Counted from the first letter of the stretch, positions 2,445 to 5,732 are shown. The stretch is DNA of 32,000 bases from Candidatus Omnitrophota bacterium (GCA_021735045.1 JAIPHU010000004.1:1-32000); one strand, 5' to 3'. The notes: generated from the sequence alone by a model not told the origin. Numbers and translations are program-made.

Positions 2445-3006
2445 TTATGTCTTTACATTAGTTAAGTTTTTTCTTTTTTTAATAATTTTTTGCTTTTTGG
2501 CAAAATTCATTCATTATTTTATAAAAGAAATTCACAGTGTAGCAGGTTTAGATTTTAATACATTTATAGGTGCAATAGTTGCTGTTTTTGCTTTTTATCT
2601 ATTCTTAACCGATTTAAATGGATTCTATAAAAAAATACAAAGATTTTTTTTTCGGTCAAAGTTTTTTTCCTGTTTATTTCCGTCAATTTTGATCATTCTT
2701 GCTTTAAGTTATTTTTTTATTCCGAAAATATTTAATATTTCCTTTGATAAAAATCTTTTTGTTTTTTTGGGGAGTTCTTCTTTGTTTATCCATTTAATTT
2801 ATGTGGCAAGAGCTACCAAAGGAAATTCATTTAATACTTTAGTTAACTATCTTTTTATCTTTAGTATACTCATCGTTTTGAATCTAATCTTTTTTGGCCT
2901 TTATCTAAAGATTAATTTTAATTTTGAGCTAGGCAAGGTTTTGCTTGACGGGGTACAGGCAGGTACAGCCTTAATTAGAGATGTTTTTGTTAAAGGGTTT
3001 AAATAG
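2419..3006 (+). CDS. Hypothetical polytopic membrane protein
   Basis: 195-aa ORF with about 5-6 hydrophobic segments and no recognisable motif. The start overlaps serS by 26 nt and is uncertain. Confidence 0.55.
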   Translation: MEERELKNNYVFTLVKFFLFLIIFCFLAKFIHYFIKEIHSVAGLDFNTFIGAIVAVFAFYLFLTDLNGFYKKIQRFFFRSKFFSCLFPSILIILALSYFFIPKIFNISFDKNLFVFLGSSSLFIHLIYVARATKGNSFNTLVNYLFIFSILIVLNLIFFGLYLKINFNFELGKVLLDGVQAGTALIRDVFVKGFK

Positions 3007-3070
3007 TATTGGAATTATTGATTAATCTTGTCCTTGTGTTATAATTTTTAAGCTATAGAAATATTAATAA

Positions 3071-3127
3071 GATCTCTCACCCGCTACGTGGGTTCGAGAT
3101 CCGAAAAATTATTTCATAATTTTTCGG
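3071..3127 (+). other. Two adjacent stem-loops directly upstream of tRNA-Ser, overlapping its 5' end
   Basis: H1 3071-3101: GATCTC/GAGATC outer stem plus ACCCGC/GTGGGT inner stem. H2 3101-3127: perfect 12-bp CCGAAAAATTAT-ttc-ATAATTTTTCGG, whose last two G residues are tRNA nt 1-2. Confidence 0.6.
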
Positions 3128-3214
3128 AGAGGTGGCAGAGTCCGGTTGAATGCGGCGGTCTTGAAAACCGTTGTGGGGTTAAACCCACCGGGGGTTCGAA
3201 TCCCTCCCTCTCCG
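3126..3214 (+). tRNA. tRNA-Ser (anticodon TGA), long variable arm
   Basis: Acceptor GGAGAGG/CCTCTCC, anticodon stem GCGGT/ACCGT with loop CTTGAAA, variable arm TGTGGGGTTAAACCCACC, T arm GGGGG-TTCGAAT-CCCTC, discriminator G. 89 nt, no CCA directly after it. Confidence 0.92.
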
Positions 3215-3286
3215 TTAAAAATTTTCTAATTTTTAACGGAGAAGTCTCACCGTCGAAACATTATTTCGACGGTGGACTCTCCGCCA
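3210..3286 (+). other. Structured tRNA-Ser trailer: two stem-loops, then a second copy of the acceptor 3' strand plus CCA
   Basis: H3 3210-3241: perfect 14-bp CTCCGTTAAAAATT-ttct-AATTTTTAACGGAG, which uses the last 5 nt of the tRNA. H4 3244-3277: 11-bp perfect core CACCGTCGAAA/TTTCGACGGTG, extended by 3 bp across a bulge. CTCTCCG at 3277-3283 repeats 3208-3214 and is followed by CCA at 3284-3286. Confidence 0.6.
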
Positions 3287-5515: not shown

Positions 5516-5589
5516 GCGCCCGTAGATCAATTGGATAGATCGTTTGGCTACGGACCAGAAGGTTGCAGGTTCGACTCCTGCCGGGCGCA
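5516..5589 (+). tRNA. tRNA-Arg (anticodon ACG)
   Basis: Acceptor GCGCCCG/CGGGCGC, D stem GATC/GATC, anticodon stem TTTGG/CCAGA with loop CTACGGA, T arm GCAGG-TTCGACT-CCTGC, discriminator A. 74 nt, no CCA directly after it. Confidence 0.93.
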
Positions 5590-5591
5590 TT

Positions 5592-5684
5592 GTTCGACTC
5601 TTCCGACGCTTTGATTTTGAAAAAAATCAAAGGTCGGAATCCCGACCGAAACGAAGTGGAGCGTCGGGACTGCCGGGCGCACCA
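5592..5684 (+). repeat. Second copy of tRNA-Arg nt 53-73 split by a 69-nt structured insert, followed by encoded CCA
   Basis: GTTCGACTC at 5592-5600 repeats 5569-5577 (nt 53-61). CTGCCGGGCGCA at 5670-5681 repeats 5578-5589 (nt 62-73). CCA is at 5682-5684. The insert at 5601-5669 is closed by a 9-bp stem formed by its own first and last 9 nt. Confidence 0.9.
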
Positions 5685-5693
5685 ATAAAGTCG

Positions 5694-5721
5694 ATAGTCT
5701 ATAGTCCATAGTCAATAGTTT
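5694..5721 (+). repeat. Four tandem ATAGTCN heptamers directly upstream of the flavodoxin-like gene RBS
   Basis: ATAGTCT ATAGTCC ATAGTCA ATAGTTT at 5694-5721, then AAGGAGG at 5722-5728 and ATG at 5733. The same heptamer type occurs in the 23S-5S spacer. Confidence 0.8.
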
Positions 5722-5732
5722 AAGGAGGTTTT

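Follow-up and report, generated by a model that had tools for sequence, protein, structure and literature searches.

A 69-nt double-hairpin element in a split tRNA-Arg relic from Candidatus Omnitrophota and its links to tRNA genes and GIY-YIG genes

Introduction

Why is an intact tRNA gene followed by a second copy of its own 3' end, and why is that copy split by a stable structured insert? The question is raised by positions 5590-5684 of a 32,000-nt stretch of DNA from a Candidatus Omnitrophota bacterium (GCA_021735045.1, JAIPHU010000004.1:1-32000), which is referred to here as the window. The window has a G+C content of 35% and the best matches of its flavodoxin gene are in Candidatus Omnitrophota. 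A first-pass annotation reported that a copy of tRNA nucleotides G53-A73 lies two nt after the intact tRNA-Arg gene and is split without loss or duplication by a 69-nt insert, and this description of the sequence was confirmed exactly. The insert was taken for an intron-like or mobile structured RNA. The explanation that we favor, with a probability of roughly 0.6, is that it is a gene-less selfish DNA element made of two hairpins, similar to a miniature inverted-repeat transposable element (MITE), which was inserted in trans with regeneration of the tRNA. Locus stretches that were compared with the window are labeled with L-numbers (e.g. L001), and the features discussed are collected in Table 1.

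Family membership and fold of the insert

The insert belongs to a family of double-hairpin elements with YCCGAC arms. A pattern derived from the four arms, CCGAC-N10-40-GTCGGRATYCCGAC-N5-30-GTCGGRA, was searched in one genome per prokaryotic species and is matched by at least 118 stretches. The chance expectation is estimated at about 1.7 at equal base frequencies and is higher in high-GC genomes, which probably accounts for the matches in Streptomyces, Saccharopolyspora and Natrinema. A Streptomyces match, L008, contains tandem GGTCGGAATYCCGACC palindromes inside open frames (3000-3100) and is probably an unrelated high-GC repeat picked up by the pattern. Among the matches listed, a hand count gives about 63 from Patescibacteria/Candidate Phyla Radiation (CPR), 21 from Omnitrophota and 14 from unclassified metagenome-assembled genomes (MAGs), together with a few MAGs labeled Planctomycetes, WOR-1/Saganbacteria or 'Gammaproteobacteria'. 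More than one copy may occur in a genome; Ca. Velamenicoccus archaeovorus LiM, for example, has three loci. In the 32-kb window no second copy was found by BLAST, by arm motifs or by covariance model.

A covariance model, R1, was derived from 20 modules that lie upstream of GIY-YIG genes and were found by a protein search independent of the window pattern. Its match in the window covers exactly positions 5601-5669, scores 52.8 bits (E 1.2e-9) for the plus strand and 46.3 bits for the minus strand, and is the only one there. The family consensus is TCCCGAC-G-C..x1..G-GTCGGGA-TCCCGAC-C..x2..G-C-GTCGGGA, with lengths of 43-81 nt. It consists of a unit, YCCGAC-G-C..x..G-GTCGGR, followed by its own reverse complement; many copies match on both strands, and the element occurs in both orientations. 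The flanks differ between copies. The arm order is a-x1-a'-a-x2-a', with 7-nt arms in which a is YCCGAC plus one or two variable outer bases and with a' and a abutting in the center, and the four arms of the window follow this order. In the modules that the protein search yielded, each arm is variable at its two outer bases (CU, CC, UU, UC, AG). An Rfam scan of 5590-5684 gave no match at gathering thresholds, including group I and II introns and known small ribozymes. The sole weak matches at permissive thresholds are to YrlA (19.7 bits against a cut-off of 69) and mir-4880.

How does the insert fold? The 69-mer has a minimum free energy (MFE) of -32.7 kcal/mol (z = -6.05), and none of 200 dinucleotide shuffles is as stable. 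The MFE fold has two tandem hairpins, UUCCGAC...GUCGGAA and UCCCGAC...GUCGGGA. Inside the first, a bulged G is followed by a 10-bp extension, CTTTGATTTT/AAAATCAAAG, and a GAAA loop. The interior of the second, CGAAACGAAGTGGAGC, is the reverse complement of an Omnitrophota subfamily motif, GCTCACTTNCGTTCGG. The first-pass annotation had drawn a three-way junction closed by a 9-bp helix between the termini (5601-5609 with 5661-5669). This helix can be drawn with one G-U pair, as can all the other helices that it listed, but it is not in the MFE fold. The junction has -30.2 kcal/mol, 2.5 worse than the MFE, and the best structure with the closing helix enforced has -31.0. Covariation contradicts the junction, as the local partner of an arm is Watson-Crick at 79 of 80 positions and the distant partner at 17 of the 80. 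Two side-by-side hairpins are favored by each of the 20 informative copies, and this is the conserved fold. The closing helix can be drawn in the window because all four arms are near-identical in sequence. The claim that the insert is not random spacer holds, and homologues with covarying arms exist elsewhere.

Units are nested in some copies. L012 has an extra nest of CCGAC/GTCGG hairpins (2532-2612) between the element and a GIY-YIG open reading frame (ORF), and nested units also occur inside x1 of L020, L027, L028, L030, L035 and L102, which suggests that units insert into one another. Among 2.9 million viral contigs the pattern has three matches (L126, 6048-6114; L127, 1098-1170; L128, 5591-5663), two of them in contigs of about 75 kb; they may be real copies in phages of these hosts or arise by chance. 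None has a GIY-YIG gene in the stretch examined. The idea of a phage vector is weak with so few viral matches and the gene in none of them.

Table 1. Features of the tRNA-Arg site in the window, and alleles of the nfo/tRNA-Ala(GGC) locus.
Feature	Position or loci	Strand	Basis or content
Intact tRNA-Arg(ACG)	5516-5589	+	ARAGORN; Rfam tRNA 64.9 bits; no encoded CCA
12-nt direct repeat CTGCCGGGCGCA	5578-5589	+	second copy 5670-5681
Filler TT	5590-5591		between regenerated tRNA end and relic
Relic piece 1, GTTCGACTC	5592-5600	+	exact copy of tRNA G53-C61
Element, dyad-symmetric double hairpin, 69 nt	5601-5669		pattern scan, covariance model R1, fold z
Hairpin 1	5601-5639		arms TTCCGAC (5601-5607) and GTCGGAA (5633-5639); MFE and arm covariation
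Hairpin 2	5640-5669		arms TCCCGAC (5640-5646) and GTCGGGA (5663-5669); MFE
Relic piece 2, ancestral tRNA 3' end C62-A73 and encoded CCA	5670-5684	+	junction GCACCAATAAAGTC same in empty site L001; alignment
Empty alleles	L212, L213		promoter TTGACA-17-TATACT, leader, tRNA
Full alleles	L135, L136, L097		promoter and leader of the empty allele, tRNA nt 1-12, 63-nt element, CAGCTGG, 35-nt leader, 89-aa ORF
Decayed alleles	L209-L211		deletion from second hairpin into ORF; start codon and N-terminal motif removed

The insertion at the tRNA-Arg gene

In related Omnitrophota the gene order is conserved: citrate synthase, a 61-aa ORF, an ORF of about 142 aa, tRNA-Arg and flavodoxin. The closest relative, L001 (flavodoxin 85% identical), reads ...GTTCGACTCCTGCCGGGCGCA-CCA-ATAAAGTCC with nothing inserted, and L007 is likewise empty. 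Comparison with these two sites shows that the 5' flank of the window tRNA-Arg is ancestral and that the last 12-21 nt of the intact gene are a new, regenerated copy. The window retains the CCA-ATAAAGTC junction of L001 after the second copy of the tRNA end, which identifies the downstream fragment as the ancestral tRNA 3' end, still joined to its ancestral downstream flank. The interruption is clean, since L001 has the uninterrupted tRNA-CCA-ATAAAGTC. Relative to the empty site the window has a net gain of 92 nt, bounded by the two 12-nt repeats and made up of the 69-nt element, the re-copied 21-nt tRNA end and TT. When GTTCGACTC and CTGCCGGGCGCA (5670-5681, followed by CCA at 5682-5684) are joined they give the exact last 21 nt of tRNA-Arg, split 9+12. 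The bases flanking the element, ...GACTC before it and CTGCC after it, join seamlessly in the tRNA and there is no flanking direct repeat.

CCA is not encoded by the tRNA-Lys (1006-1012), the tRNA-Ser (3212-3218) or the rebuilt tRNA-Arg (5587-5592) of the window. It is encoded only at the ancestral tRNA-Arg end (5679-5684), and also in L001. With CCA in the ancestral end and none in the rebuilt gene, the insertion turned tRNA-Arg from a CCA-encoded tRNA into one that depends on CCA addition.

A different insert of about 125 nt follows the same tRNA-Arg in L002/L003 (L002, 2258-2399), L004 (2122-2260), L005 (30-172) and L006 (46-188), and after it comes a second copy of the tRNA 3' end. Its layout is a T-run, an AT-rich stretch and TCGTCGGAACAAAT...hairpin...ATTTGTTNCGAC leading into the second tRNA 3' end, and the inner hairpin has a compensatory change, CTTTGG/CCAAAG against CTTCGG/CCGAAG. 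The family covariance model gives no match to these inserts. They may be older, decayed relatives of the element. Their presence at the same tRNA-Arg end in relatives indicates that this tRNA end was struck more than once.

The leader of the flavodoxin gene (window 5689-5722) is a run of 7-nt repeats, GTCNATA, with a UAG triplet every 7 nt (gaUAGucuaUAGuccaUAGucaaUAGuuuaaggagg), that reaches the ribosome-binding site. The run is kept in L001 (1729-1770), L002 (about 2400-2470, with about nine repeats), L005 (178-215) and L006 (190-225). We take it to resemble the binding sites of UAG-repeat RNA-binding regulators such as HutP.

Linkage to tRNA genes

Is the location beside a tRNA gene typical of the family? 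For 29 of 114 copies the distance to an intact tRNA is at most 160 nt, which is true of 2.1% of control positions taken from these loci. The target sequence that the element splits recurs, exact and unbroken, within 400 nt of 28 of 115 copies, with a gap of -5 to 25 nt in about 14 of the 28. The usual layout is the upstream flank, tRNA nt 1-10/12, the element, the next 4-9 nt, a filler of 2-17 nt and the complete tRNA. Read on its minus strand, the window has the same layout: 12 nt of target (X1), the element, a short target piece of 9 nt (X2', relic piece 1), a gap of 2 nt and the complete antisense tRNA. The position of TT corresponds to the 2-17 nt gap of other gene-less copies and to the site of the GIY-YIG gene in full elements. 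The geometry and the element polarity on the minus strand match L135 and L009, and the geometry also matches L016, L042, L065, L067, L071, L081 and L118. In L009 the duplication takes in 13 nt of the tRNA leader.

The minus-strand target in the window is T-GCGCCCG-GCAG/GAG (the slash marks the element), compared with GCGCCCG-TAG/ at a genuine tRNA 5' end. An antisense tRNA 3' end resembles a tRNA 5' end because the acceptor stem is self-complementary, and this mimicry may explain the unusual 3'-side position of the window copy. Element-bearing relics are also found downstream of the rebuilt tRNA in L171, L174, L177 and L106, as in the window. In L171 (1767-1990), L174 (1767-1950) and L177 (1768-1970) an intact tRNA-Arg(GCG) is followed by a tRNA-Arg relic with the element in its D-loop, L171 has a second element inside the anticodon, and the displaced 5' piece is upstream of the GIY-YIG ORF. 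A rule that insertion always occurs 10-12 nt from the tRNA end was rejected, as ORF-linked modules are found at nt 8 to nt 26 and in the T-loop.

Copies inside protein genes

Long ORFs contain 32 of 115 copies, and the length of the element is a multiple of 3 in 21 of the 32. In-frame hosts confirmed by Pfam are LeuRS, GlyRS, GatB and M17 aminopeptidase, and SMC, DnaG and PurL were identified by eye as further in-frame hosts. The in-frame copies add 15-23 residues, e.g. VPTPEGVGIPTESVGK. Examples are found in L114 (5306-5365), L112 (6553-6597), L076 (1635-1691), L047 (777-821), L019 (3037-3081), L023 (2215-2268), L095 (2316-2375) and L109 (4348-4413). In-frame residence implies that the element is translated through and not spliced out, which argues for a selfish element that acts at the DNA level.

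A GIY-YIG partner gene

Which enzyme might move the element? All-against-all clustering of 1884 ORFs from the family loci gave only one recurrent neighbor, with the motif FVYIL...YIGST...RR..QH..G. It is a single-domain protein of about 89 aa that consists of a GIY-YIG catalytic domain (Pfam PF01541, E 1e-13 to 1e-16), and among solved structures it is closest to UPF0213 BH0048 and EF2693, followed by SLX1 and I-TevI. To our knowledge no function has been established for single-domain UPF0213/YhbQ-type GIY-YIG proteins, and a literature search returned none. The gene is present in 19 of 121 element loci (tblastn) and within 150 nt of the element in 13 of 121. The clustering showed no recurrent transposase or integrase, and an integrase or RAYT partner was rejected. 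In the 32-kb window tblastn found no GIY-YIG homologue. With no such gene adjacent to it, the window copy is a gene-less member.

A metagenome search with an alignment of three GIY-YIG sequences gave 208 relatives, and the best 80 of the 208 were examined (L129-L208). In 60 of the 76 with enough downstream sequence, no more than about 50 nt separate the gene end from the start of a co-directional tRNA; Ala, Lys, Thr, Val, His, Arg, Gly, Ile, Asp and Leu are among these tRNAs. The stop codon of the gene is tRNA nt 8-10 (U8-A9-G10, TAG) in 38 of 62, so that ORF and tRNA share 10 nt and the protein ends in residues that the acceptor stem encodes. In L135, for example, the ORF is at 1501-1770 and the tRNA at 1761-1836. 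A YCCGAY...RTCGGR hairpin is found within 200 nt upstream of the ATG in 62 of 74 relatives, compared with 2 of 107 control windows. Upstream of the gene in 40 of 58, the initial 8-14 nt of the same tRNA are present a second time, either split by the hairpin module or preceding it. In this gene-carrying form the module is 5-45 nt upstream of the gene, and the gene is located between the tRNA promoter and the tRNA. L135 and L136 are of the Omnitrophota subtype to which the window belongs, as their motif GCTCACTTTCGTTCGG is the reverse complement of CGAAACGAAGTGGAGC in the window.

A second type of cassette was observed in L147, L153, L176, L190, L193, L199, L205 and L207, 70-20 nt upstream of the ORF start. 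Here the relic is a near-complete tRNA copy in which the anticodon arm is replaced by an 18-nt hairpin, GTCCGAYGGACATCGGAC, and the start codon of the ORF is in the T-loop region.

The nfo/tRNA-Ala(GGC) locus of Omnitrophota is found in three states, empty, full and decayed (Table 1). In the full alleles the last codons and the stop codon of the ORF are nt 1-10 of the complete tRNA that follows. The series places the relic at the ancestral position and implies that the cassette must be driven by the tRNA promoter. The three states match the pattern of invasion, decay and loss known for homing-endonuclease genes.

Origin of the window copy and alternative explanations

How could the arrangement in the window have arisen? 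In the full form, a short tRNA end-fragment split by the hairpins stays at the ancestral position and a complete tRNA is rebuilt after the gene. The same event on the antisense side of the tRNA-Arg 3' end would have left a functional tRNA-Arg and a 21-nt relic that bears the element. A GIY-YIG protein provided in trans may recognize either the tRNA gene or DNA in hairpin or cruciform form, and make a break. Repair from an element-bearing copy could then install the element and re-synthesize the tRNA end, in a process similar to homing. The element would have no host function beyond occupying the tRNA-Arg trailer, and the insert in the window is probably neutral.

Several points weigh against this reading. 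The 32-kb window has neither a GIY-YIG gene nor a second element, so that a partner enzyme in the genome is hypothetical. Every ORF-linked copy is at a tRNA 5' end and co-directional, which makes the antisense placement on the 3' side in the window atypical. No known transposition chemistry puts an element inside one copy of a duplicated target instead of between the copies. The hairpins might serve the nuclease cassette as regulatory parts and not as its DNA substrate. Gene-less copies are linked to the nuclease by statistics only, and activity or transcription of the element is putative. Staggered-cut duplication, single crossover of a small circle, replication slippage, flap ligation and cruciform resolution were considered, and none of them gives an element in one copy together with filler without extra assumptions.

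It has also to be asked whether a full cassette, hairpins and GIY-YIG gene, was once present here and later lost its gene by deletion, leaving the hairpins, the relic and 2 nt. Decay by internal deletion can be seen directly when L209-L211 are compared with L135, the polarity of the element relative to the intact target copy is that of full cassettes, and the same tRNA-Arg 3' end in L002, L004, L005 and L006 carries the decayed-looking insert of about 125 nt with a CGTCGGAA arm. However, the 21-nt copies are 100% identical and the four arms are perfect, which points to a young event, yet there is no trace of an ORF and the gap is 2 nt. Random deletion would give a broad spread of gaps, whereas the gap is -5 to 25 nt in about 14 gene-less copies that arose independently. 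A former cassette does not explain the tRNA leader in the duplication of L009, and there is no ORF-linked example in the antisense or 3' position. We consider cassette loss rather unlikely; the lack of a nuclease gene in 32 kb, the perfect repeats and the 2-nt gap favor gene-less insertion over cassette decay. An integrase scar, in which the direct repeats would be attL and attR around a deleted island, is a far-fetched explanation. Direct repeats of a tRNA 3' end are a hallmark of tRNA-targeting integrative elements, and in L002 and L006 roughly the final 20 nt of the tRNA are repeated about 120 nt further downstream (an exact 20 nt in L002). But the element splits the repeat instead of being flanked by it, the same architecture is usual at tRNA 5' ends, the element is also found in protein genes, and no integrase or tyrosine or serine recombinase recurs in the 118 loci, where the GIY-YIG ORF is the sole recurrent neighbor.

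The two remaining alternatives assign a role to RNA. The proposal that the insert is a small structured RNA, an intron or a mobile RNA that is removed from or acts in the tRNA transcript, has been largely refuted. The clean interruption without loss or duplication at the junction, the very stable fold and the termini that are able to pair all agree with it, and joining the ends of the element recreates its own central palindrome, GTCGGGA/TCCCGAC. What is interrupted in the window, however, is a 21-nt 3' fragment without a 5' exon, with the complete tRNA-Arg 2 nt upstream. When the element was removed and ARAGORN was run, a tRNA across the junction was restored in 1 of 114 other copies (L059) and not in the window. 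Copies in both orientations, and copies in protein genes that are in frame and open, imply translation and not splicing and point to a DNA-level selfish element; the closing helix is contradicted by covariation; and there is no Rfam match. The first-pass annotation found no bulge-helix-bulge (BHB) motif, and no dedicated BHB search was made. Of its description as intron-like or mobile, the second half survives, in that the multi-copy family looks mobile. A cis-acting RNA of the host, such as a processing barrier, a terminator or a leader switch for tRNA-Arg or flavodoxin that uses two folds of nearly equal energy, is very improbable. Alternative folds within 2 kcal/mol exist and the site separates a tRNA from a gene whose leader is unusual and bears repeats, but L001 and L007, the closest orthologous loci, have these genes and no insert, the plus strand has no following T-run, no promoter-like site was found, and family copies occur in unrelated contexts.

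Comparison with known systems

Rickettsia palindromic elements (RPEs) are reportedly short selfish palindromes that reside in frame in essential protein genes and also in RNA genes. The YCCGAC family, though not the window copy itself, is similar in that short palindromes are found in frame in protein genes in the reduced genomes of host-dependent bacteria. There is no sequence relationship, however, and at 43-81 nt the YCCGAC element is half as long, forms a strict double hairpin from 7-bp YCCGAC/GTCGGR arms and is linked to a nuclease gene and to tRNA-gene relics. We know of no enzyme for RPEs. The REP/REPIN-RAYT systems share the inverted hairpin doublet, a GC content above that of the genome, multiple copies and presumed mobilization in trans by a small nuclease. 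They differ in that the YCCGAC partner is a GIY-YIG protein (UPF0213/SLX1-like) and not a Y1 (HUH) transposase, and that the copies are few per genome and lie within genes and tRNA relics and not solely between genes.

Free-standing GIY-YIG homing genes include phage T4 SegB, located in a tRNA gene cluster, and I-TevI. As in those systems, a small GIY-YIG gene lies beside tRNAs, a series of invasion, decay and loss is found and spread presumably occurs by break repair. In contrast, the protein of about 89 aa is a catalytic domain alone, without a DNA-binding domain, a conserved hairpin module is present, and the cassette is inside a rebuilt tRNA gene, with its stop codon at tRNA nt 8-10, in cellular genomes. 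A MITE of a DDE transposon would share the terminal inverted repeats, TTCCGACGC/GCGTCGGGA, but a flanking target-site duplication is absent here. The cores of integron attC sites are RYYYAAC and GTTRRRY; the arms TCCCGAC/GTCGGGA differ from them at 2-3 positions and no cassette array or integrase is nearby. In tRNA-targeting integrative elements the tRNA is likewise regenerated and a duplicate of the tRNA end displaced, whereas the YCCGAC element is without an integrase, its duplication is 12-35 nt and adjoins the gene, the element is inside the duplication and the 5' end is mostly used.

In CPR bacteria, rRNA genes contain GIY-YIG-encoding non-intron insertions and short uncharacterized insertions (Tsurumaki et al., J Bacteriol 2024, PMC11270868). 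The host group and the enzyme family are the same, the genes encode structured RNAs, and the insertions are neither group I nor group II introns. They are in rRNA genes, however, and neither tRNA nor the hairpin module is mentioned in that paper. Archaeal BHB tRNA introns, including the transposing introns of Thermoproteales, are described (Fujishima et al. 2010, cited in PMC10714607) as short, located at non-canonical tRNA positions (D-arm, T-arm) and moved between tRNAs. The YCCGAC element differs from them in that it is bacterial, is found in relics beside an intact gene and, except in L059, restores no tRNA when removed. No known analogue combines the YCCGAC hairpin module, the GIY-YIG enzyme and the tRNA strategy. 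An earlier description of the element was not found in a literature search, whose coverage was incomplete.

Implications

It is a tentative proposal, to which we would give somewhat less than even odds, that the double hairpin and the UPF0213/SLX1-like GIY-YIG protein together form an unrecognized class of mobile element, in which a structure-specific nuclease, and not a transposase or integrase, mobilizes hairpin DNA. The autonomous form would invade and rebuild tRNA genes, borrowing the tRNA promoter and a stop codon at tRNA nt 8-10, and gene-less copies would spread to tRNA relics and in frame into essential genes across Patescibacteria/Omnitrophota.

For the window itself the consequence is modest, as tRNA-Arg stays intact; the copy nevertheless points to a widespread uncharacterized element. 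If the proposal is true, ultra-small genome-reduced bacteria (CPR/Patescibacteria and Omnitrophota) would share a selfish element that crosses phylum boundaries and is tolerated inside essential genes, and its split relic, rebuilt tRNA and borrowed promoter and stop codon would be a strategy of tRNA-gene colonization not described before. The element would account for the 'interrupted tRNA fragments' and the short in-frame insertions that annotation pipelines meet, and it could be a marker of horizontal exchange between Patescibacteria and Omnitrophota lineages. Single-domain UPF0213/YhbQ-type GIY-YIG proteins would also receive a testable substrate, either the double hairpin with its 7-bp arms or the DNA of tRNA genes, and a UPF0213 subgroup would thereby gain its first biological role.

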